NCBI GenBank assembly: GCA_963767005.1
Contig: CAVYCN010000019.1
Coordinates: forward strand, 64,001 to 128,000
DNA: 64,000 nt
Direction of reading: 5' to 3'
Source: an uncultured Actinomycetes bacterium
Lineage (GTDB): Bacteria > Actinomycetota > Thermoleophilia > UBA2241
Made by a program: the position numbers and the translations under genes. Below the pieces are notes generated by a model. That model searched no databases. It saw nothing but the letters and a program-made list of their open reading frames with translations, and was not told where the DNA came from. Positions 36,503 through 63,572 of this stretch are shown piece by piece; within the stretch, counting starts at the first letter, position 1, and each line of letters starts with the position of its first letter.

Positions 36503-36531
36503 TCCGACCTCCACCTTGTCGCCGCCCATGA

Positions 36532-38607: not shown

Positions 38608-38642
38608 TCGTGCGCCTCCTCAGGCAGCAGCGCGCGCTGCCC

Positions 38643-40130: not shown

Positions 40131-40564
40131 TGCTACCTCCTATGCGACGTAGTCCGTAGCTATGCGAAACAGCACGCCATGTGTGGCGGAGACGCTGGTG
40201 GTTGCCGAGGGCACCGCGGACAAGGGACAGTCTGGGCGCAGCTCACCGGCAACGGCCGGTGATCCCCATACGGCCGGGTACGACGACACGCGCTGCTCCA
40301 GAGCGCTTGAACCCCCCTCTCTCTCGATCGGCGCGGCCGCCGGCACTCATCCGACGCCTCCCCCAACGGTGCGGGCCGGTGATCGGTCGCTACAGCCGCT
40401 CGAGCATAGAGCTCCGATGCCCTTCGGCATTGTGTCCACTACGTCGCGGCATCGTATACGAAGTGTATGGAGAAGCTATTCTGTGGAGAGTGCGCTGTCA
40501 AGGGCGTGTCACGAGAACGACCGCGCGACGAACCGCGCGGAGATCGGGCTCCAGGGGCGGCGGG

Positions 40565-41933: not shown

Positions 41934-42230
41934 CCTCAACCCCCCTCGCCGTCGACTCCCGAAAGCAGAGTCCCGGCCGCGCCGCCAGGCCTGCGCGTCC
42001 GCGCCGGACCACGTCACGTCGAGCACGTCGATGAGGCGCGCCAAGCCCTTCGCCAGACCCTCCGCGGTCCGCTCGTCGGCGTCGATCCCGATCGTGATCG
42101 CGGTCCTCTGCTCCTCGATGTTGCGAGCCGTAAAGTGCTCGATGTTCACACCGCGACGCGCGACCTGCCCGGCGACACGGGCAAGGACCGCCGGGCGGTT
42201 AAGGACGAGAGCTCGCAGACAGACCCTCAC
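41934..42230 (-). CDS. ACT-domain protein (IlvN/IlvH-like); as assembled it runs in frame into CoA-transferase A
   Basis: LVLNRPAVLARVAGQVARRGVNIEH...LARLIDVLDV; GTG start overlaps the porB-like stop, RBS aaggggag. Confidence 0.65.
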
Positions 42231-43152
42231 GGCTCCCCTTCCACTTCGGTCGTGTCGGTCGCCGTGACCGGGAAGCAAGCCTCCATCGCGTCGAGGTAGG
42301 CCCATTGCTCGGCGATCGCGGCACGTGTGGCGTCAGGTCGAACGCGTCGGACCTGAAGCGGCCCTGGCGCGAGACGTAGTCTTCGAGGGCCGTCCCATCG
42401 GGCCGCGCGTTGATGCGGAACCGGCGGCCCGCGAAGACCTCGTAAAGCGGGAACAGGCCGCAGCCCACCGCCAGCCGACCAGGTCGACGCCCTCGGCCGG
42501 CTCGGACTTCCAGCCGGTCGGGCAGGGCGAGAGCATCACCAGGAAGCGAAAGCCGCGCAGCCGGCGGGCGAGCCGTACCTTGCGCAGCAAGTCCTCGCGG
42601 TGGGCCAGCGACAGCGTCGCCGCGTAGGGGACCCGGTGCGCTGCCAACATCGCCATGATGTCCTTCTTGGGCTCGGCCTTGCCGTCGGCGTCGTGCTGGT
42701 CTTCGCGCCCGGCGGCGTCGCGCTGGAGCGCTGCCCGCCGGTGTTGCCGTAGATCTCGTTGTCGTAGCAGATGTAGATCATGTCCTCGTTGCGCTCGGCG
42801 GCCGCCGACAGAGTCGCCATGCCGATGTCGTACGTGCCGCCGTCGCCGGCCCAGCAGACCGTCGGCGCCGTCTCATCGTTCATCGCGCGCACGCGCGCGA
42901 CCCCGGTGGCCACCGACGGCGAGCTGGCGAAGGTCGTGGCGACGGCGGGCACGCCGAAGGCGGTGGTCGGGAAATAGCCGGGCGTGACCGACGCGCAGCA
43001 GGCAGGGACGATCATCGTCGGCCGCTCGGCGCCCAGCGCCTCGTCGAGCCATTGCAGGCCGAGCGACATGCCGCAGCCCGCGCAGTCCCGTTGCCGGAGC
43101 GCCGCAGCGCGTCGTCGCTGCGAGGCCGGACGCCGTCGCCCGCGCCGCTCAT
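42227..43152 (-). CDS. 2-oxoacid:ferredoxin oxidoreductase beta (TPP-binding) subunit, frameshifted
   Basis: CAGCG, GDGGTYDIG...YDNEIYGNTGGQRS, SPCPTGW, split across ORFs 42536..43210, 42333..42656 and 42199..42468. Confidence 0.82.
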
Positions 43153-44324
43153 GGGACCACCTCCCCGACGAAGACCGCATCGGCCGCGGCGGCGCGGTCG
43201 TCGAGGTCATCGAGGATGCCCTCGATGACCGCGGGCGCCACGTCGCTGCCGCCGAGTCCCACGATGTAGTCCTGGAGCAGCACGTCGGGCCGCGCGCCGA
43301 GGCTCGTGGCGATCTCGGCCCAGAAGATGCCGCCGGAGCCCGGCGAGTGGTTGCGGTCGAGCACCGCCACGCGCCGCGCCGAGCCGAGCGCCGTGACGAA
43401 GGCCCGCCTCAGGAAGGGCCGGAAGAGCTTGAGCCTTACCAGGCCGACTTTCTCGCCGGCCGCCCGCCGCGCCGCGACGACCTCTCTGGCGGTCTCGGCC
43501 ATCGTGTTGCAGGCGACGAGCACCACGTCGGCGTCCTCCGTGTGCTCCGCCGAGAAGGCCGCGGCCGGCCGGCGGCCGAAGACCTGCTCGAACTCGTCGA
43601 GCGCGTCGGACATCGCCTCGGGCACCCTGTCCATGGCCGCCTGGATCTCGGCTCGCTGCCGCTGCGTGTCGTGCGGCCAGGTCATGCCGCCGTACATCCT
43701 CGGGTGGGCGAAGTCGAGCCGATGCGGCAGGTCGAGCGGCGGCAGGTACTCGTCGACCAGCTCCTGCTCGGGCAGGTCGACGACCATCTGCGTGTGCGAC
43801 AGCAGAAAGCCGTCCTGCGCGACCAGCGCCGGCAGGAGCACCCGGTGGTCCTCGGCCACCCGGAAGGCGACCAGGATCGTGTCGACCAGGTCCTGGTGCG
43901 AGTCGCAGTAGAACTGCAGCCATGGCGCATCCCGCAGGGCGAGGCTGTCGCCCTGGTCGATCCAGATGTTCCACGGCGGGCCCAGCGTGCGGTTGGAGGC
44001 GACCATCACGATCGGCAGGCGGTAGTAGCCCGCCGCGAAGACGTTCTCGGTCATGTAGAGGAGCCCGTTGGAGGAGCTCGCCGTGAACGAGCGGGCACCC
44101 GCCAGCGAGCCGCCGATGCAGACGCCCATGGCGCTGTGCTCGGACTCGACCGGCACGACGCTGCCCTTGGCGAAGGAGTGCGCCATGAGGTACTCGATGA
44201 TCTCGGTCTGCGGCGTGATGGGATAGACGCCCGAGCAGCAGCCGCGCGCGCCGCGGTTGGCCTCGCCCGCCGCCGCCAGCGCATAGCCGGCGGCGTTATT
44301 GCCGGTGACGTAGGCGCGGCTCAT
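43149..44324 (-). CDS. 2-oxoacid:ferredoxin oxidoreductase alpha subunit (Por/Vor type)
   Basis: TGNNAA, YPITPQTEI, VESEHSAM, TASSSNGL, DGFLLSHT, FRPF. Confidence 0.9.
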   Translation of the reverse strand: MSRAYVTGNNAAGYALAAAGEANRGARGCCSGVYPITPQTEIIEYLMAHSFAKGSVVPVESEHSAMGVCIGGSLAGARSFTASSSNGLLYMTENVFAAGYYRLPIVMVASNRTLGPPWNIWIDQGDSLALRDAPWLQFYCDSHQDLVDTILVAFRVAEDHRVLLPALVAQDGFLLSHTQMVVDLPEQELVDEYLPPLDLPHRLDFAHPRMYGGMTWPHDTQRQRAEIQAAMDRVPEAMSDALDEFEQVFGRRPAAAFSAEHTEDADVVLVACNTMAETAREVVAARRAAGEKVGLVRLKLFRPFLRRAFVTALGSARRVAVLDRNHSPGSGGIFWAEIATSLGARPDVLLQDYIVGLGGSDVAPAVIEGILDDLDDRAAAADAVFVGEVVP

Positions 44325-46550
44325 CCGGCCACCGCCGTGACGCCGTCCTCCATGACGATGGCCCCGCGAGGACACTGCGCGACGCACAGACCCGCAGCCC
44401 TTGCAGTACTCGTAGTCGAACACGTAACCGCCCTCCCTGTCGAGGCAGACGACTCCCTCGGGGCAGTAGGCCACGCACGTGTCGCACTCGTTGCAGGCGC
44501 CACAGCTCAGGCAGCGGTCGGCTTCGGCGACCGTCGCGTCCTCGCCGGCCCGTCGACCAGGCCGCGGCGGACCTCGAGGAAGCTGTGCCGCCGCTCGTCG
44601 AGGGGCGCCAGGGCGCCTCTGTGCTGCGGGCTGCGGGGGAAGCGCGCGAAGTCGACCACGTCGGTTCCGGCGAGCTCGTGCGGCTCCGCGGGGGCGAGCT
44701 CGCGGCCGGCCAGCAGCGCGTCGATGCACGCGGCCGCCAGCCGGCCGCTGCCCACGCCCGCCGCCACGGTGCCCTCGGCGACGGCGAGGTCGCCGGCGAC
44801 GAAGAGCGGCGCGTCCGTGCTCGCGTCGGCGACGCGGCCGTCCACGATCTCGGCGCCCTCGGGCAGGACGGACAGGTCCGCCGCCTGCCCGAGCGCCAGC
44901 AGCACGCGATCGCAGGGCACCTCGGCGAGGCGTCGCCCTCGAGGGGGACGGCGCGACGCCGACCGGACTCATCGGGCTCCCCGAGCCGCATGCGCCGGCA
45001 GACCAGGACGAGCCCGTCGTCGGCCTTGTCGAGCCGGACGGGCGCCTGGAGCTCGTCGAGCTCGATGCCTTCTTCGAGCGCCTCGTCGACCTCTTCGGCG
45101 ATCGCCGGCATCTCCGCGCGGGTGCGGCGATAGACCACGCGCACCTGTCGCGCGCCGAGACGCGCCGCGCAGCGCGCGGCGTCCATCGCCGTGTTGCCGC
45201 CACCCAGCACGACGACGCTGGCGCCGCGCACCGACGCCCTGCCCTTGCGGGCGCCGTCGAGGAACTCGAGGCCCTGCACGACCCTGCCGCCGGGCACGCT
45301 GCCCAGATCGAGCGCGGGCTGCTCTGCAGCCCGGTCGCCACGAGCACGGCGGCGTACTCACGGCGCAACCGGCCAAGACCCTCGCGATCGACGGCACGAC
45401 CGACCTCGACCTCGACCCCATGACGCACGATGAAGTCGATCTCGCGGTCGAGCACGTCGCGCGGCAGTCGATACGGCGGGATGCCGCGACGCAGCAGGCC
45501 GCCCGTCTCGTCGGCCGCCTCGAAGACCGTCACCCGGTAGCCGGCGCGCGCGAGGTGATAGGCGGCGCTCAGCCCGGCCGGGCCCGAGCCGACGACGGCG
45601 ACGCGTTCGAGCCGCGACGGTCCGCACGTTCGCGGCCACGTGCCCCGTTGGGCGACCGCGCGCTCGATCTCGCGCACGTTCACCGCCTCGTCGAGCTGCG
45701 AGCGGTTGCAGGCGGCCATGCACGGCGCCGGGCAGACGCGGCCGCAGATGCCCGGGAACGGCGTCGTGTGCAGCAGGGTCGCCAGGGCGCCGTCGCAGTC
45801 CCCGCGGACCGCCGCCTGCACGAAGCCGCGCACGTCGTTGCCCGCGGGACAGGCCGCGTCGCAGCGCGCCGCCAGCCGGCGGCCGCGCGGCCGGCGCGAG
45901 GCCCACTCTCCCGTACGGGTCGTGGGAAGGCCGCCCACATCCTCGTCGAGAAACCCCACGGCGGCGGTGCGGCGAGCGCGACGGCCGGCGGACCGCAGCG
46001 GCCCGGCAGCTCCTGCGCTGCACCTCGTCGAACGCCGCCCGTGCGGCGGCGAGGTTTCCGCCGGCGAACCGCGCCTCGCGCAGGGCGGCCTCGACGTCCG
46101 CGAGCGCGAGGCCCAGCAGCTTGGCCACGGCGCCGAGGATCGTCGTGTTGACGATCGGCAGGGCGGTGGTCCCGAGATGGTTGGCGGCGGCGATGGCGTC
46201 GGCGTCGACCGTGGCCACGCGCCGGCCCGGGAAGAGCGTCGCGAAGGCGCCGGGCGGCCGCGGCGTGTTGAGCATCAGCCACCCCCCGGGCTTCAGCCCC
46301 GCGGCGACCGGCGGGGCGATCAGCGACGGTCGATGACGACGACGTGGTCGGGCTCCGCGATGGGCAGGTGCGCCGTGATCTCGTTCGCGTCGACCCGGAC
46401 GAAGGACTGCACCGGGGCCCCCGCGCGCTCGGCGCCGTAGACGCCGAACGCCTGCACGTAGTCGCCCCGCAGAAAGTAGGCGCCGGCGATCAGCTTCGCG
46501 AGCGTGACGCCGCCGCGACCGCCGCGACCCTGGATCACGATCTCGAGCAT
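44321..46550 (-). CDS. Apparent fusion: OFOR gamma subunit + GltD/NfnB-like FAD/NAD(P) oxidoreductase + delta-type 2x[4Fe-4S] domain (several frameshifts)
   Basis: QGRGGRGGVT..YGAERAGAPV..IVNTTILGA, then CDAACPAGND..CGRVCPAPCMAACNR, GSGPAGL, GIPPYRLP, GGGNTAMDA, then CLSCGACNECDTCVAYCP and CKGCG..C...CP. Confidence 0.75.
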
Positions 46551-46557
46551 GGCCCGA

Positions 46558-47475
46558 TCACCTCGCCGCGTAGACCGGGTAGCACCAGCGCCGGTAGGCG
46601 GTAGCTTGCCGCGCACCACGGCGGCGTAGAGGTCGCTCACCGCCGCCGTCACCGGCCCCGCTCGTCCGTCGCCCACGGTGCGGTGGTCGATCTCGTAGAC
46701 GGGCGTGATCTCGGCCGCCGTCCCGCACAGGAAGACCTCGTCGGAGACGTAGAGCTCGCTGCGGTTCACCGACCGCTCGACGACCTCGAGACCGAGCTCC
46801 GCCACGGCCAGCTCCATCACGCACTCCCGGGTGATGCCGGCCAGCAGGTCGTCGCCGGCAGCCGGCGTGACCAGGGGCCATCCTGGACCAGGAAGATGTT
46901 CTCGCCCGTGCCCTCGGCCACGTGGCCGGACGCCGTCAGCGTCAGGGCTTCGTCGAAGCCGTTGGCCATGGCCTCGTATCGCGCGAGGGCCATGGCGGAG
47001 TACATGCCGCCGATCTTGGCCCGCGCCGGCGCGACGTTGCCTTCGGGACGCCGCCAGGAGCTCACGCAGCAGCGGATGCCGCCGGCGGCGAGGTACCGGC
47101 CCATCGGCACGTAGAAGATGACCAGGCTGTCCTCGAGGTCGGCCCGCCACACGCCGATCGCTTCGTGCTCTTGAAGACGATGGGACGCAGGTGCACGTCG
47201 ACCCTGACGCCGTCCCGCGCCAGGAGCGCCACGCTGATCGCGCAGAGCTCGTCCTCGGAATGCGGCAGCGCCATGTCGTAGAATCCAGCGGAACGATGGA
47301 GGCGGGAGTAGTGGCGATCGGCGCGGAACAGATAGAGCTCCTCGGTGTCGGCGTCCCAGTAGGCGCGGATGCCCTCGAACACGCTCGTGCCGTAGTTGAG
47401 AGCATGGCTTTCGATGCCGAACGTCAGCCCTCCGAGGGCGACGAACCGACCATCCAGAAACGCCGATACCTCCAT
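46558..47475 (-). CDS. ilvE: Branched-chain amino acid aminotransferase (PLP class IV), frameshifted
   Basis: HALNYGTSVFEGIRAY, AKIGGMY, GFDEAL..GHVAEGTGENIF, LAGITR, DEVFLCGTAAEITPV, in successive frames. Confidence 0.85.
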
Positions 47476-47501
47476 GACCCTCCTCGCCGTGCGCATGCCG
47501 A

Positions 47502-47603: not shown

Positions 47604-48354
47604 ATGAGATCTTCCAGAGATCCCTCGGCGTTCTCGTCGGCCGTGCCCCCGGCACCGGTGAGCGCGGTGAGTCCGAGCGACCTCACCGCCGCCCTGATCC
47701 GCGGCATGATCTACTCGGGCGAGCTCACGCCCGGCGATTGGCTGCCGCCCGGTCGCGAGCTGGCCGACCACCTGGGCATCTCTGTGCTCACGCTGAGAGT
47801 GGCGCTGAAGTCGCTCGAGGGCGCCGGCTTCATCGTGGCACGAGCAGAGGAGCGCACGGCGGATCGCGCGTGGTCGACATCGAGACCCTCACCCGCTGCT
47901 GGACCGATTGGATGCGCGACAAGGTGCACGACATCGACGACCTCTGGGAGTTCCGCGAGATCGTCGAGGCGAACATCGCCTCGCTCGCGGCCGGGCATCG
48001 CAGCGCCGCAGAGCTGCATGCCATCGAGGCGGCCTGGGCGGCGGCGGCCACCGACAGCCACGCCGCGTTCCTGCGCTGGAACGCCGTGTTCCACGACGCG
48101 CTCGCGACGGCGTCGCACAGCTGGCGCCTGACCGAAGCCATGCTCGCCGTGCGCCGCGAACTCTTCCTGCCGGTAGCGCTCGCTACTGCGCAAGCATCGG
48201 GCCGAAGAGCTGCGCGATTCGCACACCCAGATCCTCGAAGCGATGCGTCTGCGCCGGCCGGCGCGGGCCGCCGACGCCATGCGCAGTCACCTGGCCAACA
48301 CCCGTCGATGGCGACGACGTGCTGGCCGAGACGCTCGGCGCACGGCGCCTGTAG
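47604..48354 (+). CDS. GntR/FadR-family transcriptional regulator, frameshifted
   Basis: wHTH PGDWLPPGRELADHLGISVLTLRVALKSLE; FCD domain LWEFREIVEANIASLAA...FHDALATASHS...MRSHL in later frames. Confidence 0.8.
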
Positions 48355-48390
48355 GCCGCGCGGTCGGCGCCGCCGTCAGACGGCGGCGGG

Positions 48391-49091
48391 CTACCTGGTC
48401 GTCGCCGCTCCGCGCCCGCCCCGACCCCCTGCGAAGATGCGCGCATCGAGGGCGACACAGCCCCGGGCCAAAGCGATCCGGGGTTCAAGTCGATCTCGGC
48501 GATCTCGGTGTGACGACCAGAAGGTCGCCGATCCTGACGAGACGTCGGCGACCGCGTCGCGGTGAACCGGCGGCTGGCCGCGGAAGCCTCGAGCGGCCGC
48601 GCGGCGGCAGCTCGGTGGCGTCTCCAGGCCGTCTGGGCGTCGCAACGACGCGACGCGGAACACAACGTCGGCCAGCAGCTCGGCCAACACGCCGCCCAGC
48701 CCGCCATCACCGTCGGCCCGAAGGTGGCGTCGCGCACGGCGCCAACGATCGACTCGCGACCGCCGAAGACGTGGCCGGCCACGAGGACGCCGTCGATACG
48801 CGCACCCGGCAGCGCGTGCTCACGGCGCAGCCGAGCGTGGCCAGGCCCGCTCGCAGCCCCGTCTCGTCGCTCAGACCGATGACCACGCCGCCGGCGACGG
48901 TCTTGTGGACCACGTCGCGGGAGATGACCTTCAGGACGACCGGGTAGCCGATGCGCGCGGCGATGCCGGCAACGGCCTCGGCGGCAGAGCCCATGCCGTG
49001 CTCGACGCAGGAGATGCCGCAGAGCAGAAGGAGCGCGGCGGCTTCCGGCTCCAGCAGCATGCTCGTCGAGCTGCTCCGCGGTGACGCTCAC
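48391..49091 (-). CDS. ADP-forming acetate/acyl-CoA ligase beta (ATP-grasp) subunit, frameshifted
   Basis: LLEPEA, IGYPVVLKVIS..VVHKTVAGGV, RDATFGPTVMAG, EIDLNP, ALDARI. Confidence 0.75.
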
Positions 49092-50492
49092 GATCCCACC
49101 TCCGCTCCCCGTCGTTTCTCCGCATACCAGCAGCCGGCGGCGATCGCCCGCATCGCCCGCTCCGGCGATGGGAAGACGCGGGCACGCCCAGCCGCTGCAT
49201 CCTGCGCCGTTCGACCTGTTCGACGGCGCCGCCGCCGTAGTACGCGGCGCAGACGGCGGCCCGCGGACTTCGGCGGCCAGCTCGGCGGCCAGCTCCGCCG
49301 CCCCCGGGACCGGGTCGCCGAAGATCAGCAGGATCGTGTCGACGAACCCGGCGGCGTCGGCCAGCCGCGCCGCCGTGCGGAACTGGTCCACACCGATCGT
49401 CGCCAGGTCGAGCGGATTGGCGAACGAGCCCCACTCGGCGAGGTCCATGCCCCTGAGCCCCGCGACGAGGTCGGGCGGCAGGACGGGCAGGACGAGGCCG
49501 TGCGCGTCGCCCACGTCGGCGGCGAGCGCGCAGCTACCGCCGGACGAGGAGACGACGAGCACCCTGCGCGCCCGGTAACGGGCGCACGCTCGCGAGGATC
49601 TTGGCGGCGTCGTAGAAGGATTCGGAATCGTCGGCCGCGCCACGCCGTACTCGCGGCGGGCCCGCTCGAACACCTGATCGGAGCCGGCGAGCGACCCGGT
49701 GTGCGAGGCGACGGCCTCGCGGCCGCGCTGCGAGCGCCCGCACTTGGACACAGCGAGCGGCTTCTTCAAGGCCACGCTCCTGGCGGCCGCCACGAAGCGC
49801 GGACCGTCGGACACGCCCTCGAGGTACAGGGCCACGGCCCGCGTGTCGTCGTCGTCGGCCAGCAGGTCCGCACCGCGTCCGCCTGCGCAGATGTCGGCCT
49901 GGTTGCCGAGACTGATCGAGGCACTGACGCCGAGGCCGTCGTCCTGGGCCCAGTCGGTGATCACGCCGCCACGACCGTGCCGCTCTGCCCGACCACCGCG
50001 AGGGGCCCGTGCTCGGTCGTCGCCCGGCCAGAACACGGCGCACAACCGGTTGGGCCCGTACGACACGCCCTGGATGTTGAGCCCGAACAGGCGCAGGCCG
50101 CGCTCGCGCGCGATGGCCACGAGCTCCCTGTCGAACTCGGGCTTGCCGGAGACTGACTCGCGCCCGCCGGCGCTGATCACGATCGCTCCGGCCGCTCCCT
50201 TGTCGGCGGCCTCGTGCAGGACGCCCGGCACGAACCGGGCTCGCGCGGCGATCACCACGAGGTCGATCTCGCCGGGGATGTCCGTGACCGCGGGGTAGCA
50301 CGTGAGGCCCGACACCTTCTCGGCCCTGGGGTTGACCGGGAAAACCTCGCCGGTGAACCCCCCGGCCAGGATCGACGGCACCAGCACGCCGCTGAACTTG
50401 CTCGGGTCCTGCGACGCACCGACCACGGCGACGCGTCGCGCCTTCAGCATCCGCCAGATGGCGTCCGTGTCACCCACCACGCTCTCCTTCAC
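49088..50492 (-). CDS. ADP-forming acetate/acyl-CoA ligase alpha (CoA-binding) subunit, frameshifted
   Basis: VAVVGASQDPSK, FPVNP, CYPAVTDIPGEIDL, SLGNQADI, LYLEGV, phospho-His motif SHTGSLAG, SSGG, NPLDL. Confidence 0.8.
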
Positions 50493-50537: not shown

Positions 50538-51912
50538 TCACCGCAGCAGCTCGAGCGCGACCTGCTCGACGAAGAACGCCTCGAACGCCAGGTCGGCCAC
50601 CGCGATGCGCTCGTCGACGTTGTGGCAGCGCGGCCACACGTCCTTGTAGCTCTCCACGACGTGCGGATCGAAGTTGTGGGCGACGACGTCGGGGAAGGCG
50701 CGCGCAGCCAGCGCGAGTCGGTGAACCCGACGCAGTGCGTGTTGCCCAGGACGGCGCCCGGCACGTGGCGCTCGAGCACCGCGCGCACGGCCTCCGAAAG
50801 CGGCGACGGGTACGGCGAGGCGTTGCCGCGCACGACGTTGATCCATTCGAGCTCCCACTCGGCCTCGACGCCCTGTAGCGCGGCATACACCATGGCCTGG
50901 ACGCGGCCTCGTCGTCGCCGGCCAGCGTGCGGCAGTCCACGCCGAGCTCCACCCCCTGTGGTCGGAAAGACGTTCACTCCCCCGGGTTGTCGGACCGCAC
51001 GGTGGTGACCGAGAACGCAAAGCCGTACAGCGGCTCGATCATGGCGGCCAGGCCGGGTTCGCGATCCGCCAGCTCGTCGAGGGCGGCGCGCGCCCGCGCG
51101 GGGTCGCGCAGGCGGGCGCGCAGGTCGGGATGCCGGCGACCAGGTACCCGACGAGGTCGCGCGACTGATCGACGACCTCGACCGGCAGCTCGCAGGCGGC
51201 GAGCGCCGCGGCCACGCGTGCGGCGGCGAGCACGGCGTTGCCCTGCCGCAGCGGCACCGAGCCGTGACCGGCGCGGCCGTGCACGACGATGCGGAACTGG
51301 GCCGCGCCCTTCTCGCCGCTCTGCAGCAGGAAGAGGCGGCGATCGCCGCACGGCACGTAGGCGCCGTCTCCCTCGTTCAGGACGTAGTCGCAGCGCAGGA
51401 GATCGGGGCGCTGCTCGAGCAGCCAGCGCACCCCGCCACCGGTGCGGCGCTTGCCCACCGTCGGCCGTGCAGGCATAGGTGACCGTGCCGGCGAAGGGCG
51501 CGCCAGTGGCGGCCAGGCGCCGCACGGCGACGGCGTTGGCCGCCACGAGGTTCTTGATATCCACGGCCCCGCGGCCCCAGACGTAGCCGTCCTTCACGAG
51601 GCCCGAGAACGGCGGGACCTGCCAGTCGGCCGGGTCAGCCGGCACGACGTCTTCGTGGGCCAGCAGCAGGAGGGTCGGCCCCGGCCTGCTGCCCTCGAGC
51701 CGGCAGACGAAGCTGGCTCGCCCAGGCTCGCCGACGACCTCGCCCTGCAGCCCGTGCCCACGAAACCACTCGGCCATGAACGTCGCCACGGCCGTCTCGT
51801 TGCCCGGCGGGTTGCTCGTGTCGATCTGGATGAGCCGGCTGAGCAGGTGGGCCGACTCGCGCTCCAGGTCGGCCATCAGCGCCGGGTCGAGGCCGATGGT
51901 CGTGGTGGTCAT
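50538..51912 (-). CDS. M20/M25/M40 family metallopeptidase/deacylase, frameshifted
   Basis: IQIDTSNPPGNE, LLAHEDVVPA, WGRGAVDIK, LNEG, GRAGHGS, NVFP, GFTDSRWL, HNVDERI. Confidence 0.8.
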
Positions 51913-53418
51913 GTCACACCTCCGAAGCGTCGGCCGGCGGCTGCGAGCGACTCTCCGCGCGAGGCGTGGCTGGTTGCCCAGTCCGGCGCCGCGACGCGGG
52001 TGGCCGCGGCATGGTCGCGCACGTACTGCTTGATGCGCTGCACCACGTCGGACGGCGCGCCGTACGCGAAGGGCCCGCTCCAGGATCTCCTCAACCCTGG
52101 CGTGGGCGCGCGCCAGCATCGTGTACTCGTCGCCGGTGCGACCCCGTGTGGTTGAAGGAGCCGCCGTAGTAGTGCTCGCCCGCCTGCACGGCGCGCCTGG
52201 TGTGCGTCTCGCCGAGGAACGAGCCGCCCGGGCCGATCTTCTCGATGATCTCGTAGGCCAGGGTCGCATCGTCGACCACGATCTCGGTGGAGAGGCGCTG
52301 CGCCATCTCCCAGATGTCGTGATCGATCACGACCTGCTCGTAGCTGTGGTGGGCGGCGTTGTCGAGCGGGCCGCCCATGGTCACGAAATCGGCCTCGCTC
52401 TGGGCCAGGATGAGGATCGCCATGGCCTTTTCGATGCCCGCCTGGACGTCGGGCCACTGCGAGTCGCTGTACCCGCCCATGCGCGTCGTCGGTAGGCCGT
52501 AGTACCTGGCCAGCGCCATCTCGCCGCTGCTGATCAGGCAGGTCTCCGCCGCGCCCATCGACAGGTAGCCGGTGCGCATGTTCATGAGGGAGCCGGTCGG
52601 AGCGTGCAGGACCTTCGCTCCCGGCCAGATCGTGTTGGCCAGCGTGCACAAAAAGAGCGTCTCGGCATCACCCAGCAGCAGGTTGGCAGCCACCACGTCG
52701 CCGGCGTGGCGACCCCGGCGATCGGCATGGGGCAGACGTCGACCGGACAGTGCCGCCCGACGACGTGCATGATGATGTCGCCCTCGCGCGCGCCCAGCAC
52801 GAGCGGCGTGGTTGTGTTGATCTCGGCCCACGTGCCGGGAGCGCTGTCGAGGCTGTCGGTGCCGGCCGCCACCATCGCGAGATCGAGCGACGTGCGGGCG
52901 TCGCCGACGTTGCCTGGCGCGCAGAGACTGAGCTTGCCGGTGACGGCCAGCACGAGCCCGAGCGTGTCGGCCACGTCGATCTCGGCCGGCACGTCGCTCG
53001 ACGGGTACTGGATGGCGACCGTGAACTCGGCGCCGGGCAGCGCGTTGGTCACCCGGCAGAGATCGATCACGTCCTGGCGGCGGGGCGGGCGGAACTCGTG
53101 AGCGCCGTAGTCGAGCATCTTCGGCATCTTCACGCGCACGCCGGCGTGCTGCCTACCGTCGGGGACGGTGAACCGCGACCCGCCCGGGCGCACGAGCTCG
53201 AAGGTCCGCGGGAGCTGAGCCATCGCCTCCTCGACCATGGCGGCGGGCAGACGCACCACGTCGGTCTGCCCCAGCGCCTTGGCGCCGGCGCGCTCGAGCA
53301 CCTCTCGGCAGCGGTCGTTCTCGACGCGCACGCCGACGTTCTCGAGGACCCTCAGCGACTCGGCGTGGATCCGGTCGAGCGCCTTCTCGTCGAGCAGGGA
53401 CACGGCCTTGGTCGCCAT
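51909..53418 (-). CDS. Trimethylamine methyltransferase (MttB) superfamily protein, pyrrolysine-free, frameshifted
   Basis: IHAESLRVLENVGV, TTTPL, MPIAGVATPAT, NMRTG..MGAAE, ARYYGLPTTRMGGYSDSQWPDVQAGIEK, SYEQVVIDHD, IGPGGSFLGETHT. Confidence 0.85.
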
Positions 53419-53438
53419 CTCGTCGCACGCTCCCCTTG

Positions 53439-54720
53439 TCAGCGGCCGCGAGCGCCGTCGCCCACCGCGGCGGTCGCGAGGGCGAGGCCCTGGGCCGCCA
53501 TGCGGCCGAGCGCACGCTGCCAGGCGGCCACGACCTCGCCCAGCACGCCGTCGTCCATCGGCGTCGAGAGGTTCATGCTGCCGCGCGGCGCGATGTAGAG
53601 GCCTTCCTCGAGGCAGGCGCGATGGAAGGCCAGCGGCGCCGCCGAGTTCACCTGCAGCAGCGAGCCGTAGTTGTGCACGCGTACGTCGAGGCCGGCGGCG
53701 TCGGCCGCGTCGTTGAGCAGGCGCGACAGGCTGTCGCCGAAGCCGTTGATGCGGTCGCAGGCTGCCGTGTCGAGCATGTCGAGGCTGACGCAGCCCGCGG
53801 CCAGGCACAGGGGGCTGCCGTTCATGGTGCCGTGGGCCGACAGCGGCTCGGGGATGCGCGGGTCGAAGATCCGCATGACCTCTTCCTTGCCCCCGTAGGC
53901 GCCCAGCGGCATGCCGCCGGCGATCGTCTTGCCGACCGTTGTGAGATCGGCCTCGATGCCGTGCTCCGCCTGCCAGCCGCCGGGGTGCAGGCGAACGGTG
54001 ATCGTCTCGTCGAGGATGAGCAGAGCGCCGTGCTCGTGCGCGAGTCGCAGCGCGGCGCGGATGAACTCGGGGTCGCCGGGCTCGAGGATGTGGCCCAGGA
54101 TCGGCTCGAGCAGGATGGCGACTGTTGGGGCCGTGCGCCTGCATCAGCTCCTCGAGATGGGCGACGTCGTTGAAGCGCACGAAGTGGCACATGCCGGCGA
54201 GCGCCTGGGGGATGCCCATCGGGACAACGCCGGCGCCGTCAGGGTGAGCCTCGTCGGCGCCGCTCAGGGAGACCTGGTCCCAGCTACCGTGGTAGCCGTT
54301 GGCGGGCATGATGATGTCGTCGCGGCCGGTGAACGCGCGCGCCCCTCGCACGGCCATCATGACCGCCTCGGTGGCCGAGTTGGTGAAGCGCACGAGGTCG
54401 ATCGAGGGCGTCCGCGAGCAGAGCCGCTCGGCGAGCTCACCCTGCAGGGCGATAGGCGCGGGCATGGCCGCGGCCAGACCGTGGGGTGCCGTGCGCGTCA
54501 TGGCCTCGACGATGCGCGGATGCGCGTGGCCGTGGACCAGGGCGGTGTAGTTGTTGATCAGGTCGATGTAGGCGTTGCCGTCGACGTCCCAGAGGCGGCA
54601 GCCCTCGCCCCGCTCGATGCCGATCGGGAACGGATCGTAATGGGTCACCGTCCTCGTGTTGGCGCCGGGCATCACCTTCGCCAGCCGCTCGAAGAGCTCG
54701 CGTGATCTGTCGTCTCTCAT
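53439..54720 (-). CDS. Class III PLP aminotransferase (GSA aminomutase-like), one frameshift near 54130
   Basis: MPGANTR, WDVDGNAYID, HGHAHP, RFTNSATEA, YHGS, ILDETIT, TVGKTIAGGMPLGAYGG, HGTMNGSP. Confidence 0.85.
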
Positions 54721-54847
54721 CTGCCTCTCCTGCACGATCGGGGCTTGGCGTAGTGGGCAAGCGCAACGCGCCGGTCACCGACTTGCCCGCCCGCGGGGGC
54801 TGGATGCGTATCGTATGCAATCAGCATACCGAGCGCGGTGATGGCGG

Positions 54848-55883
54848 TCAACGGAAGATGAACCCTTCCCCGACGGGGTCGTCGGGGTCGACGAAGAAGG
54901 TGGCCGTACCGGTAAGGAAGGCCGCGCCCGTGACCTCGGGCACGACGGCCCGGTGACGACCGACGCCTGAGCGCGCGACGACGGACACGGCGAAGCACGT
55001 GCCGAGGATGCTCTCGATGACGATGGTCTCGCCGTCGCCGAGCTGGCCGGCATCATGCAGCAGGGCGGCCCGGGCGCTGACCCCCGTGCCGGTCGGCGAG
55101 CGGTCGACCTCGCCCTCGGCAAAGACGCAGACGTGCCTGCTGTGGTGGCGCTCGTCGGCCGGCGGGCCGGTGAAGATGACGCCGTAGAGGAAGCCCAGGT
55201 CGGGGGCGTTCGGGTCGTCGATCGTGAGCTGGGCCGCGACCGCCTGCTTGACCAGCTTTCCCACACAGACCAGGCGATCGTGCTGGCCTGGCACCAGCGA
55301 CAGGCCGAGGTCGGCCGCGTCGCAGAAGGCGTAGTAGGCGCCGCCGAAGGCGACGTCGCAGACCGTCGTGCCGATGCCCTCGAGCCTCACGTCGACGCCG
55401 CGCCGGTAGACGAACGACGGCACGTTGGCGAAGCTCACCGTGTGCACGGTCCCGCCCGCCGCCGTCGCGCGGGCCACCACGAGACCGGCCGGCGTGTCGG
55501 TTCTCACCGAGCGACTCGGCGCCCTCGCCGGCCGCGACCATGCCCGTCTCCAGGAGCACCTTCGTGAAGCCGATGATGCCGTGCCCGCACATGGTGCTGA
55601 AGCCCTCGTTGTGCAGGAACAGCACGCCGCAGTCGCTACCCTCCGTCACCGGGGCGGTCGGGATCGCGCCGTACATGTCGGCATGACCGCGCGGCTCCCA
55701 CATCAGCGTCCGCCGCAGGCCGTCGAGATGCTCCTGGGCGTAGCGACGTTTGGCGAGCATCGTGTCGCCCGGGATCGGCGGCAGCCCCTCGACGATCACC
55801 CGCAGGGGCTCGCCGGCGGCGTGCACGTCGATGGTCCGCAGGACCGGTGAACCCCCGGGTACGTGCGGCGTGACCTGCGCCAT
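54848..55883 (-). CDS. Proline racemase family protein, Cys/Thr type (probable trans-3-hydroxy-L-proline dehydratase), one frameshift near 55505
   Basis: [59 protein letters not shown]. Confidence 0.85.
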
Positions 55884-57268
55884 CAGCCGTAGAAGGGCGG
55901 ATCGCGGAACTGCAGCCCCATTGCTTCCAGACCTGCCCTTGCCTCTTCGTATGCCGCGCGGATCTCCGGGCCGGGGCGCCGCGTCGCTACCTCGTAGCAG
56001 TCCTGATAGCGCAGACCGAGCGGCGGGTCCTTGAGCTTGTCCTCGTAGGCGTCGAGCAGCCGCAGGACGATCGCGTTGACCTCGGCCCGGGGCAGACCGA
56101 CCACGGACCGCCCGACCTCGGCGGCAAGCAACGGCTCCGCCGGCGAGACGTGATCGGGGTGCGTGGCGCGCGCGGCGGGGCCGGCCTCGACGCTGCCGCC
56201 GCTCACCACGCAGGTTGCGGCCATCGCCGCCGCCTCGTACAGGCTCATCGTCGTCCCGGGCCCGGCCGCGTAGACACCCGACTCGAGACAGGGCACGTCG
56301 CTATGGGTGGTGACCGCCTGCATCGCCACCGACCGCACCCAGATGACGTCGCGGCCGGCGACGGACTGCGTCTCGAAGTGCGTCACGTACGGGTGCTGGA
56401 CGGCGGCCTGAAGGACGAGCAGCGCGAAGAAGTGATAGGCGGCGAGCGTGATCGCACAGCCGGCCGGACCACCCGCGTAGCCGCCGATCACCTGCCCGGT
56501 GCCGCCCAGCACGTGGCGACCCTGCGAGCGTGCGAACGCGACCCGGCTCAGATTGTCGAAGTCGATCTTGAGCTCGGCGATGTTGCCGATCTCGGTCACG
56601 TCGTGGCTGCCGGCGAGGGCGCCGCCGGCGATGTTCCCCTGCGCCTTGACGCCGGTCGGCACGAGGTTGGAGATGCCCAGACCGGGGCGCCCGGCGGCGT
56701 GGCGCGCCGCCTCCCGCGTCATGGCGACCGTGCGCAGGCACCCCTCGACCTCGAGAGGGCTGCCGGCGACGACCGGCAGGCCGTCGATCTGCGCCATCGC
56801 CGGCGAGGCGACGGCGTCGATGTGGGGCAGCTCGCAATAGGCTTGCGTGAGGCTCGCGAAGACGTCGTCGCTGGTGACCGCCGCGCCGCAGGCGCCGAGC
56901 GAGAAGAACGGCTCGATCGCGCTCTCGGGGCGGCGGGTCGGGATCGCCCTGGCCTGCTGCCCCTCGCCCAGGACGACGCCGCGCGGCGCTTCGGCCAGCG
57001 CCTGGTCGAGCTCGAGCTCGTCGAACGCGACCACTCGCTCGGTGTCGACGCAGTAGACCCCGACGCGCAGGAACAGCTCGCGGCCGGCCTGCCAGACGCG
57101 TTCGGCGAGGTCGTCGTCACTCGGGATCGGCGTCTCGGGCGTGTAGACGATCCCGTGCTTCTTGACGAGCTCGCGGACCGCCGGGATGAAGCGCTTGAGG
57201 TCGAAGTCGCCCTGGTTACAGATCTCGCCGCTCACGGCGCGGCGGTAGAAGTCGACGCTCGAGAGCAT
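55883..57268 (-). CDS. Monomethylamine methyltransferase (MtmB) family protein, pyrrolysine-free
   Basis: [15 protein letters not shown]...[61 protein letters not shown]; 461 uninterrupted codons. Confidence 0.85.
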
Positions 57269-57274
57269 CCGCCA

Positions 57275-57926
57275 TCAGCTCCTCTGGCGCCGGGCCAGGG
57301 CGACGGCGTCGGCCGCCGTCTCTCCGTAGCCGTCGGCCCCGATCTCGCGCGCCCACTCCGCGGTGACGGCCGCACCGCCGACCATGACGAAGAAGTCGTC
57401 CCTCCTGCCCGCCGCGGCCAGATGCTCGAGGACCTCGCGCTGCTGCGGGATGGTCGTCGACATGAGGGCGCACACGGCGATCACCTCGGCGCGCGCATCG
57501 CCGGCGGCCGAGACAAAGCGCGACGCGGGAACATCGACGCCGAGGTCGACCACCTCGAACCCCGAGGCCTTCAGCATAGTGGCGACGATGTTCTTGCCGA
57601 GCGAGTGGATGTCGCCCTTGACGGTGCCGATCACGACCTTGCCCCTGGCGTCGGCGCGCGTGGCGCCCTCGAGCAGCGGCTCGACCAGGTCCATGCCGGC
57701 CTGCCAGGCTTCGGCCGCGAGCATCATCTCGGGCAGGTAGACCTCTTCGCGACGGAACTGCTCGCCGACCTCGCGGATGCCGGCCACGAGCCCGTCGTCG
57801 AGCAGGGCGCGCGGCGCAAGACCGGCCTCGAGACCCTCCCGTACGAGCGCCGGCACCCGGTCGAAGTCGGCCTCGACGAAGGCCGCCACGATGCGGCAAC
57901 CCCCGCTCGGCCTGCGCATCACTCAT
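57275..57926 (-). CDS. Corrinoid (B12-binding) methyl-acceptor protein, MtmC/MttC-like
   Basis: GLVAGIREVGEQF..YLPEM, GTVKGDIHSLGKNIV (DxHxxG), DLGVDVP, VMVGGA, IGADGY; likely start MSDAQ at 57926 with an indel near 57897. Confidence 0.9.
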
Positions 57927-58100: not shown

Positions 58101-60018
<1,918 letters not shown>

Positions 60019-60022
<4 letters not shown>

Positions 60023-60909
60023 ATCACTGCCAACCGGCTCAGCTCGTCGCCGGCGAGGACCCGCGACAGGGCATCGGCGGTGAGGTTGAGTGACACGGCC
60101 AGGCACGTGATGCCGAGCGCCGGCAGCATGGTGCCCCACGGCGCCACGGTGATCAGGGCACGGTTCTCGGCCACCATCAGCCCCCAGTCCGGCGTCGGCG
60201 GCTGCACGCCGAGGCCGAGGAAGCTGAGCGTGGCGACGAACAGGATGCCGTAGGTGAGCCGCAGGCCGAACTCGGCGAGGGTCGGCCCCGAGACGTTGGG
60301 CAGCACCTCGCGGAAGATGATCGACAGGTCCCGTTCGCCGCGCGCCTGCGCGGACAGGACATAGGGGTTGACGATCACCGACTGGGCCGTGCCGCGCACC
60401 ACCCGCCCCATGCCCGGCGCGTACACGAGCGCGACGACAGTGATCAGCACCGTATCGGAGGAGCCGACCGCGCCGATGATCACGAGCACGATGAGCAGCG
60501 GCGGCAGGGTGAGCATCACGTCGAACACCTTGGAGATCACGACGTCGGGCCAGCGGCCCCAGTAGGCGGCGAACAGGCCGAGGCTGCCGCCGACGATGAG
60601 CGAGAGCGTCACGGCGACGAGCGGGATGAGCAGCACGGTCACGCCGCCGTGCAGGAAACGGCTCAGGACGTCGCGCCCGAGGGCGTCGGTACCGAACCAG
60701 TGCGCCGCCGACGAGGGCGAGCCCGGAGCGCCGGCGTCGTAGTTCGTGCCGGGCCCGAAGAAGCGGCCGAGCACGATGAGCCCGATCATGAAGGCGCCCA
60801 GGCCGATGCCGATCTTGCCTTCCGTGGTCTGCAGCACGCCGCGGAGCACGCTGCGCCGCGGTGCGACGCTCGCCACGGAAGCGGCGGCCGATGATTCTGC
60901 AATGCTCAT
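60019..60909 (-). CDS. Dpp/Opp ABC transporter permease (DppC-like)
   Basis: HWFGTDALGRDVLSR, YVLSAQARG..REVLPN, LSFLGLGVQPPTPDWG. Confidence 0.92.
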
Positions 60910-60912
60910 CTC

Positions 60913-61953
60913 TCAGCCGTTCCTGAGTCGGGGGTTGTAGAAGGTCACAAGGACGTCGGCGGCGACTCCGATGGCGATGAAGAGGACGCCACAGAGCATC
61001 GCGACCGCCTGGACCACGAGCAGATCGCCGTCGGCGATGGACTGGACGAGCAGCGTGCCCATGCCCGGGAAGCCGAACACGTTCTCGACGATGATGACAC
61101 CACCGACGAGCCAGATCAGGTCGAGGGCCACGGCGTTGATGATCGGGCCCGAGGCGTTCGGCATGAGGTGCTTGTAGACGATGGTGCGACGCGACAGTCC
61201 GCGCAGGACCGCCGCGCGCGCGTAGGGTGTCGTCATCGTCTCGCGCACGGAGACCTGCGTGAGCCGCGAGATGTGCGGCAGCAGCGAGATCACCAGCGTG
61301 GTGGTCGGCAGGATGAAGGCCTGGATCTTGCCGGACACCCCCCCGAACGACATGCCGGTGCTGTCGACCGGTGTCAGGCCGAGCTTCACGGACAGCGCGT
61401 AGATCAACACGATGCCGATGACGAAGACCGGGATCGCGGCCACCGACACGTTCATGATGGAGAGGCTGAGCTCGCGCACCCGCGAGCCGGGTCTGGCAAG
61501 GTAGACGCCGAAGGCGATCGCGATCGGCAGGGCGACGATGATCGAGGTCAGCGCCAGGATGAACGTATTGACGAACTTCGGCATGACGATGCCGCTCACG
61601 GGATCGTTCGTGACCGCCGACGTGCCCCAGTCGCCGTGCAGGAACCCGACGAGCCACTGCTCGTACTGCACGATCACCGGCCGGTCGAGCCCGTGCGCGC
61701 GGTTGAAGTCGGAGAGCTGCTGCGGCGTGGCCTGGCGACCGAGGACGCGGCGCGCCACGTTGATGCCCAGCACGTGCGTCGAGGCGAAGACGATCAGCGA
61801 GATCAGCAGCAGCGTGACCAGGGCGGGAATGAGGCGCGACCGCACGAGCAGCCACGCCACCGACGCCGCACCCCCCCTGCCGGGGGGTGCGGCGAACGCT
61901 TCGGTGGAAGCCAGCGCCGCCTCGGGTAGAGACGGTTCCGAACCTTCCGTCAT
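60913..61953 (-). CDS. Dpp/Opp ABC transporter permease (DppB-like)
   Basis: GLDRPVIVQY, GDWGTS, YARAAVLRGL, VENVFGFPGMG. Confidence 0.92.
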   Translation of the reverse strand: MTEGSEPSLPEAALASTEAFAAPPGRGGAASVAWLLVRSRLIPALVTLLLISLIVFASTHVLGINVARRVLGRQATPQQLSDFNRAHGLDRPVIVQYEQWLVGFLHGDWGTSAVTNDPVSGIVMPKFVNTFILALTSIIVALPIAIAFGVYLARPGSRVRELSLSIMNVSVAAIPVFVIGIVLIYALSVKLGLTPVDSTGMSFGGVSGKIQAFILPTTTLVISLLPHISRLTQVSVRETMTTPYARAAVLRGLSRRTIVYKHLMPNASGPIINAVALDLIWLVGGVIIVENVFGFPGMGTLLVQSIADGDLLVVQAVAMLCGVLFIAIGVAADVLVTFYNPRLRNG

Positions 61954-63572
61954 GCGTAGAACCCGCACTGCCGGAAGTCGAGCATGGAGAACGTCCAGGG
62001 TACGACCCTGGTGCCGACCCTCGAGGTCCAGAGGCGATTGAGGTAGGCGGGGATCATCTCGCCGCTGCCGCCGTCACCGGAGGCCATCCATTCGCAGCAC
62101 TCGGTGGTCGCCGCCGTGAGCGCGTCGCCGGTCGACGCGTACGCCTTGGTGAGCAGCGCGTCCATCTTGGCGCTCTTCCACTTGGACTCGTTCCACGGCG
62201 CGCTGCTCTGGCAGTTGAGCGCCATGGTCTCGACGGGATGACGCCGGTTCCAGTCGTCGACGCAGAACGGATCCTTCATCCACACCGTGTCCCAATAGGT
62301 GTCGGCCGGGATCTGCTTGACGGTGATGCGGAAGGGCGAGCCCTTGGTCGCGGCCGCGAAGGCCAGGCTGAAGTTGGCGTGCAGCGCGTCGCCGGGGGCC
62401 TTCAGGTTCAGGTCGATGCCGCTGGCGTAGCCGGCCTCGGTCATGAGCTGGGTCGCCTTGGCGCGATCCATCTTCGTCGTCGCGATCAGCGTGTCGTTCA
62501 TGAACGGGTCGTCCATCGCGACCCAGGCGTCGGGCGACGCGAACCCCTGCCCGCCGTAGGCGATGTTGATGACGTTGTCGCGGTCGATCGAGAGCTTGAG
62601 GGCCTGGCGCACCCGGGGGTCGCTGAACGGCTTGGTCGTACAGTCGCACACGACGCAGTACGTGATGCCCTTCTCGTAGGGGTTGACCTGCAGCTTGGAG
62701 TTGGCCTTGACCACGGCGAGCTGGTCGAACGAGACCTGGGTCACGCTCGCCGCGCCCGACGCGACCGACTGCAGCTTGGTCGACTCTTCGGGGTCCTGGA
62801 TGCCGCGCACGGTGTCGACGATCGGATAGCCCGTCATCCAGTAGGCCGGGTTCTTGTCGACCTCGAAGGACTGACCTTCGTTGTAGAACTTGAGCTTGAA
62901 CGGGCCGGTCCCGATCCCCTTGGCGTAGTCGGCTTCCTTGCTGTTCGCCTTGACGAGGTAGCACTGCTGGTTGGACAGCGCCAGCAGCAGGAGCGAGTCG
63001 GGGCGCTTGAGCTTGAGCTTGAGCGTCAGGTCGTCGACGACGACGACGCCGTTCTTGTCGATGCTCGAGTCGAGACGCTGCATCATGCCCGAGCCGCCCT
63101 CGGGCGACATGATCCGCTCGATCGACCAGGCGGCGTCCTTCGCCGTGAACGGCGTGCCGTCGTGCCAGGTGACGTTGGGGCGCAGATGGAAGGTGTACTC
63201 CGTGAGCTCGGGATTGACGTCCCAGGTCTGCGCCAGGCGCGGCACCGGCTGGAACTTGAAGTCGTAGGACACAAGACCTTCGCGCAGCATGCCCTCGAGC
63301 GCGTCCTGGCCGTCGTCGATGTTCTTGAGCGGATCGAGGCCGTCCTTGGGGAACAGCTGATCGGTCGCGAACGTGAAGACCCCGCCGCGCTTGATGGCCC
63401 TCGACGAGGCCGTCGGCGCGGCGCCCGTCCCTGAACCGCTGCTCCCGCAAGCGGCCAGCAGGCCGGAGCTTGCGAGCCCCGCTCCCAGGCCGACGACAGC
63501 GCCGGCCTGCAGCAGTTGACGCCGCGTCAGGCGTACGCCCAGGGGGCCTTCTGCTTCACCTCGTGACTTCAC
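61950..63572 (-). CDS. Family 5 ABC substrate-binding lipoprotein with twin-arginine signal
   Basis: TRRQLL plus lipobox LLAAC, LRPNVTWHDGTPFTAKD, GTGPFKL, FSDPRVRQALKLSIDR. Confidence 0.92.
   Translation of the reverse strand: MKSRGEAEGPLGVRLTRRQLLQAGAVVGLGAGLASSGLLAACGSSGSGTGAAPTASSRAIKRGGVFTFATDQLFPKDGLDPLKNIDDGQDALEGMLREGLVSYDFKFQPVPRLAQTWDVNPELTEYTFHLRPNVTWHDGTPFTAKDAAWSIERIMSPEGGSGMMQRLDSSIDKNGVVVVDDLTLKLKLKRPDSLLLLALSNQQCYLVKANSKEADYAKGIGTGPFKLKFYNEGQSFEVDKNPAYWMTGYPIVDTVRGIQDPEESTKLQSVASGAASVTQVSFDQLAVVKANSKLQVNPYEKGITYCVVCDCTTKPFSDPRVRQALKLSIDRDNVINIAYGGQGFASPDAWVAMDDPFMNDTLIATTKMDRAKATQLMTEAGYASGIDLNLKAPGDALHANFSLAFAAATKGSPFRITVKQIPADTYWDTVWMKDPFCVDDWNRRHPVETMALNCQSSAPWNESKWKSAKMDALLTKAYASTGDALTAATTECCEWMASGDGGSGEMIPAYLNRLWTSRVGTRVVPWTFSMLDFRQCGFYA

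Follow-up and report, generated by a model that had tools for sequence, protein, structure and literature searches.

A pyrrolysine-free MtmB subfamily in a conserved amino-acid-catabolic operon of uncultured Thermoleophilia

What does a homologue of the monomethylamine methyltransferase MtmB act on when it encodes an ordinary amino acid in place of pyrrolysine (Pyl)? The question is raised by a 64,000-nucleotide stretch of DNA (the window, G000:C19:64001-128000) from the 3.44-Mb, 19-contig genome G000 of an uncultured actinobacterium, for which the nearest titled homologous loci are those of Thermoleophilia. On the minus strand at 55883..57268, the window encodes an MtmB-family methyltransferase with Ser200 at the Pyl202 site and Gly256 at the Glu259-aligned site, flanked by genes for a corrinoid protein and a trans-3-hydroxyproline (t3Hyp) dehydratase-like enzyme. 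The original prediction took these genes for a new N-demethylation system and Pyl-free MtmB for a class lacking any assigned substrate; neither claim is supported. Pyl-free MtmBs were already known, and MtqB of the MtqB/MtqC pair from Methanococcoides methylutens Q3c gave the class its first function, with rates of 37, 42 and 11 nmol/min/mg on tetramethylammonium, choline and methylamine, respectively, according to the available parts of that report (PMC13044021). The same parts describe the remaining non-Pyl MtmBs of a 1,061-sequence tree as ‘of unknown function’, and a role outside methylamine had been suggested earlier for a non-Pyl MtmB in the accessible text of PMC9768040; PMC9842639, likewise available in part, served as family and substrate background. 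What is new here is an undescribed MtmB subfamily in a conserved Thermoleophilia operon.

The open reading frame encodes 461 amino acids with no in-frame stop and matches PF05369 over its full length (262.3 bits against a cut-off of 25; residues 5-452, profile positions 4-450 of 450). Aligned with MtmB of Methanosarcina barkeri (216 bits, 30% identity), Ser200 pairs with the X at position 202 of 1L2Q; its codon is TCC at 56669-56671 on the minus strand, so that serine stands where Pyl-dependent enzymes have UAG-encoded pyrrolysine. Both the uninterrupted full-length homologue and this serine had been called correctly from the DNA. An AlphaFold model (pLDDT 93.4) superposes on 1NTH, 1L2Q and 1TV2 with a TM score of 0.94 and a root-mean-square deviation of 1.6 Å, the next families reaching TM ≤0.57, and an ESM Atlas search returned MtmB clusters only. 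The window protein is thus an MtmB family member, outside the Pyl-dependent methylamine enzymes. It shares with the M. barkeri MtmB/MtmC system the TIM-barrel fold, the AGRPG motif, a glutamate (Glu226) aligned with Glu229 and an adjoining corrinoid gene, and differs, with pocket residues placed by alignment only, in Ser for Pyl202, Gly for Glu259, Ser/Val for Gln333/Tyr335 and a bacterial, amino-acid-catabolic context. Of Glu229 and Glu259, presumably the acidic pocket pair of methanogen MtmB, it therefore retains the first and not the second. A 460-residue copy from another assembly (P0001) is identical at 459/461 positions; relative to it the window MtmB has a one-residue local indel just before the Pyl-site motif, probably an assembly error, and a further copy (P0057) carries a frameshift of its own.

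The absence of Pyl at this site is shared by a whole subfamily. Searches yielded 117 homologues, 55 of them 54-75% identical to the window protein. A 273-row FastTree tree, which excluded tblastn hits <380 amino acids and proteins <420 amino acids and in which locus and protein rows were not de-duplicated, placed the window protein in a 73-row clade with support of 0.999. At the Pyl site these rows have Ala (51), Ser (16), Pro (4) or Gly (2), and at the Glu259-aligned site Glu (54), Gly (14, including the window protein) or Ala (5). Asn201, Glu226 and His292 are invariant (73/73) and Glu361 nearly so (72/73). With pocket positions taken from the MtmB alignment, these four residues would be a better match for a zwitterionic amino acid than an aromatic cage would be. 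The subfamily is distant in the tree from the genome's own TAG-containing MtmB and about 30% identical to Pyl MtmB. It resembles MtqB in being Pyl-free, in having a neighbouring corrinoid gene and in the proposal that the substrate mimics Pyl. MtqB, by its description in the available text, differs in branching near the Pyl MtmBs and in a Met/Cys/aromatic pocket, whereas the window subfamily is distant and has Asn/Glu/His; the methyl acceptor proposed for the window system is folate, as opposed to CoM for MtqB.

The immediate neighbours are packed as tightly as was first claimed. The corrinoid gene (57275..57922, minus strand), the only one in the window and the predicted cognate methyl acceptor, ends 6 bp upstream of MtmB; its product contains a PF02607 cap and a PF02310 B12-binding domain above cut-offs, has the DxHxxG motif as DIHSLG, and scores 206.5 bits against TIGR02370, slightly below the 215.3 cut-off. 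On the other side, the dehydratase start (54848..55883, minus strand; MCGHG and DRSPTGT motifs) overlaps the MtmB stop codon. This gene is t3Hyp-dehydratase-like, as predicted, and carries one frameshift near 55510 that the original prediction left unmentioned. Another assembly encodes an intact, 344-residue protein (P0254) that matches the two window pieces at 100% and 99% identity; it and its orthologues keep the Cys99/Thr264 pair, and Cys/Thr is the t3HypD signature in the available text of PMC4113996. An intact orthologue has its best solved match in T. litoralis 6R76 (387 bits) and scores 279 bits to the human dehydratase 7QPO and ≤252 bits to racemases and epimerases.

Frameshifts are a feature of this region: besides the dehydratase, the transaminase, MttB, M20, CoA ligase and ABC ATPase genes of the operon are broken in the window assembly, and a search for intact copies of the organism's own versions of these five found none. 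Compared with 332 open reading frames of relatives, C19:102-128 kb shows 12 frame changes in 14 alignments, some of which overlap, whereas 75 alignments elsewhere (about 31,850 amino acids) show none, and gene decay was therefore weighed. The dehydratase break is an error specific to the window assembly, because P0254 holds the whole protein. A second transaminase copy (P0256) is frame-damaged at another place, and indels that differ between assemblies point to read errors, a cause that is presumed also for MttB, M20 and the ligase. The MtmB and its operon are real and conserved, and are probably functional.

Comparison of 68 loci from genomes and 79 from metagenomes revealed a conserved gene order: a family 5 substrate-binding protein (SBP5), DppBCDF, an opine dehydrogenase, an M19 peptidase, the corrinoid protein, MtmB, a variable insert, the dehydratase, BKACE, a class III transaminase and MttB. 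The insert is absent or consists of a thiamine pyrophosphate (TPP) enzyme or DHDPS+3HCDH+IlvD; downstream of MttB, relatives have M20, PutA, PanB or a class I transaminase, and genes for GntR and an ADP-forming CoA ligase lie in the vicinity. TPP-enzyme matches at the MtmB 3′ end in L073, L074, L077-L079 and L083 were discarded as artefacts of an over-long query frame, the enzyme being real only in L010, L076 and G023. A corrinoid gene is present at 105/138 MtmB loci examined, and the dehydratase and MttB recur at 70-90% identity. Among 25 subfamily loci, 6 end before the downstream gene, 5 are Anaerolineae-type (two look like the same DNA) and 14 are others; the dehydratase lies downstream of MtmB in 9 of these 14, and one (L089) ends too soon. 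The linkage of MtmB, dehydratase and MttB thus recurs in relatives, as the original prediction had anticipated. Some carry proline-catabolic genes nearby: L005 has PutA behind MttB, L011 has glutamate-semialdehyde dehydrogenase, and the extended G023 operon has a gene of the OCD (ornithine cyclodeaminase) family. An MR/MLE gene in L074 was rejected as a hydroxyproline-betaine epimerase, as it resembles acid-sugar dehydratases. Dehalococcoidia MtmBs, too, have DHDPS and MR genes close by, but these were discounted because they lie on the opposite strand and the DHDPS scores above the DapA cut-off. In 89 genomes of the window's family, a set that overlaps the compared loci and includes kin that are not independent, the MtmB subfamily occurs in 6, a full-length proline-racemase-family gene in 7 and both in 5; in G089, one of the two genomes with the racemase-family gene only, that gene is at a contig start. 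In 39/89 genomes PF05544 was matched only weakly (E about 1e-4 to 1e-6 over 60-85 positions), and these matches were not counted as dehydratases. The subfamily MtmB is absent from 11/11 further genomes of the genus. In G000 the cluster has the look of an island, because in G011 the flanking genes directly adjoin GntR-BKACE-Tdh, the divergent unit (Tdh, threonine 3-dehydrogenase) that in G000 carries BKACE at C19:129731, just beyond the window.

In this setting the substrate is probably some N-methyl amino acid. Tentatively, and with slightly less confidence than doubt, we propose N-methyl-3-hydroxyproline or N-methylproline, from which MtmB would remove the last methyl group. In the MtmB family, the enzyme presents a methyl group to Co(I) of an adjacent corrinoid protein, MeTr moves the methyl to tetrahydrofolate and RACo repairs the cobalt; the MttB-family enzyme MtpB yields N-methylproline. 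From the observed fold, Pyl-site residue, gene order and its conservation, and from the MeTr (above cut-off), RACo, FTHFS and PutA homologues and OCD-family gene present in G000, we infer every substrate and the order of steps in the following route. An Opp-type importer would take up (3-hydroxy)proline betaine or its N-methyl form, and MttB would strip the first methyl from the betaine. MtmB would then pass the last methyl of the N-monomethyl imino acid to Co(I) of the adjacent corrinoid protein without oxygen, the substrate's ring and carboxylate occupying the space filled by Pyl in methanogen MtmB. The Cys/Thr enzyme could dehydrate trans-3-hydroxyproline to Δ1-pyrroline-2-carboxylate, or else take the N-methyl form before MtmB does, and an imine reductase (the opine dehydrogenase in relatives, the OCD-family gene at C19:41428 in G000) would deliver proline to PutA. 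The methyl group would reach tetrahydrofolate via the MeTr-type protein, with RACo reactivating cobalt, and would be oxidized or assimilated and not made into acetate, because a search for acetyl-CoA synthase gave no match in G000.

In favour of the proposed division of labour, MttB-family enzymes demethylate proline betaine and other betaines; MtyB was without detectable activity on its own dimethyl product in the available text of PMC8604678, so that removal of all methyl groups calls for a second enzyme. MtgB, MtpB, MtcB and MtyB (PF06253) belong to the same superfamily as the operon MttB (51978..53436, minus strand; three frame changes here, highly conserved among operon copies), a non-Pyl enzyme with Tyr at the Pyl334-aligned site, and depend on B12 to demethylate amino-acid betaines. 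Their substrate is the quaternary amine, and no MtmB-family partner was reported for them in the parts of the literature examined. Contexts of more distant MtmBs are mostly amino-acid catabolic, and three distant loci (L116, L117 and L121) encode corrinoid protein, MtmB, (methyl)malonate-semialdehyde dehydrogenase, class III transaminase and MttB, a layout that would be expected for beta-alanine betaine; as a candidate pathway it would fit MttB acting first and MtmB last. L126, L131 and L140 belong to the same distant Pyl-free group, with MttB not in view. The original prediction also had the one corrinoid protein in the window serve MttB. It is indeed the single such gene there, but dependence of MttB on it is doubtful, because the genome has 23 B12-binding matches and G023 keeps MttB without the corrinoid protein or MtmB. 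A wider proposal is doubtful as a whole: that the missing enzymes for the last methyl in anaerobic betaine breakdown are the Pyl-free MtmBs of this clade and its neighbours, that MttB and MtmB here together take (3-hydroxy)proline betaine to the free imino acid without oxygen, and that the opine-dehydrogenase-family protein represents a novel type of pyrroline-2-carboxylate reductase.

Several observations weigh against a (3-hydroxy)proline substrate. The intact dehydratase orthologue in L006 scores 370 bits against NF045511 (t3HypD), its best-scoring model, well short of the 540 cut-off. Relative to the t3Hyp pathway (t3HypD 6R76 and 7QPO with an OCD/MLD2 pyrroline-2-carboxylate (Pyr2C) reductase), the operon has the Cys/Thr dehydratase, with an OCD-family gene and PutA elsewhere in the genome, but is linked to corrinoid methyltransferases and has an opine-dehydrogenase-family gene in place of OCD/MLD2. 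For an OCD/MLD2-type Pyr2C reductase the picture is mixed: none lies in the operon, an OCD-family gene scoring below family cut-offs lies 77 kb off on the same contig, and the extended G023 operon has a partial OCD match. BKACE and the beta-transaminase-like enzyme have no role in the proposed route, and a hydroxyproline substrate leaves the conserved opine dehydrogenase, M19, BKACE and transaminase unexplained; searches of G000 for opine dehydrogenase and M19 detected neither. BKACE is also more tightly tied to the MtmB subfamily than the dehydratase is, with orthologues in 11/89 genomes including 6/6 with the subfamily. The dehydratase is missing beside MtmB in 4/14 loci (L009, L074, L079 and L086) and in 5/5 Anaerolineae-type loci, where enolase and glycerate kinase take its place. 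Nor does the dehydratase depend on MtmB, because G023 (90% complete) has importer, opine dehydrogenase, dehydratase, BKACE, transaminase and MttB, and lacks M19, corrinoid protein and MtmB; the link between the two is not obligate. Specificity may differ within the subfamily, because the dehydratase follows MtmB in 7/8 decided loci of the Glu type, the residue of 54/73 rows at the Glu259-aligned site, and in 1/4 of the Gly/Ala type besides the window, whose own residue is Gly; the L005 and L006 orthologues are of the Glu type. The operon MttB, moreover, scores 144 bits against MtgB and lacks its four binding residues in register: in the L006 MttB, by alignment only, MtgB Y97 pairs with Leu, R312 with Thr (an Arg is one residue away), H348 with a gap and F356 with Ala. 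N-methyl-trans-3-hydroxyproline reportedly occurs naturally in Tamarix. The proline betaine enzyme MtpB keeps R312 (PMC13080624, available in part), 4-hydroxy-N-methylproline occurs in plants according to the available text of PMC6983124, and 3-hydroxystachydrine is reportedly a plasma metabolite. Within a literature search whose scope left subscription journals aside, no paper was found on this operon, on N-methyl proline demethylation with Eubacterium limosum, or joining monomethylamine methyltransferase with hydroxyproline and corrinoid.

A rival reading starts from the BKACE and transaminase genes. MtmB might take the last methyl off an N-methyl beta- or omega-amino acid, with the transaminase yielding a beta-keto acid, BKACE an acyl-CoA plus acetoacetate and the CoA ligase ATP, while the dehydratase serves a second, co-imported substrate. 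The transaminase (53439..54735, minus strand, frameshifted here) has 6K8H as its best solved match, and its closest solved relatives include beta-phenylalanine and beta-transaminases (219 and 202 bits), similar to its scores with GSA aminomutases. BKACE, transaminase and MttB form a fixed block in L005, L006, L009, L010, L011, G023 and G089; L009 and L074 have MtmB and this block without the dehydratase, every subfamily genome has the BKACE orthologue, and acetoacetate-type CoA transferase genes lie at 40565-42305. We nevertheless consider a beta- or omega-amino acid rather unlikely: the block persists without MtmB in G023, BKACE orthologues occur without MtmB in G007, G010 and G011, BKACE in G000 sits in its separate divergent unit, and the evidence names no abundant natural N-methyl beta-amino acid. 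BKACE itself could not be assigned to any of the substrate groups in the available parts of the two sources compared (PMC4922564 and 10.1101/2023.02.15.528638).

Broad salvage is improbable. In that case MtmB would demethylate N-methyl amino acids at large (sarcosine, N-methylalanine and so on), and the operon would be a patchwork for recovering modified amino acids from imported peptides. In keeping with this are the peptide-type importer, the peptidases (M19 adjoining the corrinoid gene at 9 loci; M20 in the window, L011 and G023; M24 in L079) and the variable genes between MtmB and dehydratase. The recurrence of the same dehydratase and MttB at 70-90% identity suggests, however, a specific compound, and characterised corrinoid methyltransferases are mostly narrow according to the available text of PMC8604678. 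An O-demethylase acting on a small methoxy hydroxy-acid such as O-methylglycerate, with the Glu/His cluster binding a metal, is similarly improbable, and strongest for the Anaerolineae branch, where enolase and glycerate kinase are encoded at all five loci that extend downstream of MtmB, a LarA racemase at three of them and a transaminase at none; sugar-acid-type dehydratases adjoin MtmB in L074, L011 and L089. Yet the Anaerolineae-type members are just 54-57% identical and form their own branch, the window operon is amino-acid catabolic throughout, and enolase and glycerate kinase flank MtmBs of other clades too. Chloroflexota-type MtmBs (L007, L008, L080, L088, L015, L024, L107 and L108), often in tandem, occur with enolase, glycerate 2-kinase and LarA racemase, which suggests glycerate as a product and possibly O-demethylation.

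A quaternary amine (choline, tetramethylammonium or proline betaine itself) is the substrate type of the only characterised Pyl-free MtmB, MtqB (PMC13044021, available parts), and would make the window enzyme its functional counterpart; we hold this to be quite improbable, given the distance of the subfamily from the Pyl MtmBs, near which MtqB is placed, and its conserved barrel-end Asn/Glu/His in place of the Met, Cys and several aromatics described for the MtqB pocket, MtqB being known by description only. It is very improbable that the gene encodes a plain monomethylamine methyltransferase or is decaying along with an island of pseudogenes in the making. The weak methylamine activity of MtqB in the same report and the clustered frame changes speak for this, but the genome has a separate TAG-containing MtmB, the dehydratase is whole in another assembly, indels differ between assemblies and orthologous operons are intact in L005, L006 and G023.

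Other genes of the island complete the picture of the window. The Opp/Dpp-type ABC importer (58104..63572, minus strand) comprises the family 5 binding protein (61950-63572), two permeases (60913-61968 and 60019-60909) and fused ATPases with one frame change (about 58104-60043), all on the minus strand; in a tblastn search against plasmids the binding protein gave 28-33% matches, none functionally labelled. Prb of Sinorhizobium is an Opp-like importer of proline betaine. Downstream of MttB on the same strand lie a frameshifted M20 (ArgE/DapE-like) peptidase or deacylase (50544..51900) and a frameshifted ADP-forming acyl-CoA ligase with CoA-binding and ATP-grasp domains (48183..50492). At 34730-47500, a hydantoinase/oxoprolinase A/B pair, an APC permease, the CoA-transferase pair, a 2-oxoacid:ferredoxin oxidoreductase cluster and a class IV transaminase extend the island, and the G023 operon is followed by the same order. 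Elsewhere in G023, L206 (G023:C34:50000-69900) encodes SBP5, 3HCDH, CoA ligase, BKACE (59% identical to the operon's), SDR and a cis-3-hydroxyproline-dehydratase-like aconitase X, so that this type of BKACE is found for a second time with a gene resembling a 3-hydroxyproline dehydratase.

Genome-wide, G000 has 41 MttB-family matches and 4 MtmBs besides its B12-binding proteins. A single in-frame TAG is present in one of the MtmB genes and in each of seven MttB genes, so that this actinobacterium probably uses pyrrolysine. Two more Pyl-free MtmBs (L161, G000:C3:104519, and L162, C2:314112) belong to another clade, are 29-31% identical to the window MtmB and each have a corrinoid gene of their own; MtmBs of the C2 type are widespread among genomes of the genus. 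A further locus, L198 (G000:C4:98000-117900), encodes on one strand SBP3, a run of 4-5 MttBs, a lysine 2,3-aminomutase (above the TIGR03820 cut-off), RACo, three EamA transporters, a class III transaminase and BKACE, a candidate route for methyl-lysine demethylation and beta-lysine cleavage. In other genomes, Pyl-free MtmBs of L104, L105, L109, L110, L115 and L125 adjoin an arylmalonate-decarboxylase/racemase-family gene and DUF6282, and their substrate is possibly of the N-methylaspartate type.

Most Pyl-free MtmBs have no known substrate, MtqB being the one characterised member of the class in the available text of PMC13044021. Characterised MttB-family enzymes leave tertiary amines after betaine demethylation, and the anaerobic fate of these products is largely open. 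The compact subfamily, conserved operon and short candidate list make the proposal testable with a cob(I)alamin assay such as that used for MtqB. If true, it would name a substrate for uncultured Thermoleophilia that have dozens of methyltransferases and no detectable acetyl-CoA synthase, would bear on the gain or loss of pyrrolysine in the MtmB fold, and would give a new job to an enzyme class with one known substrate set.

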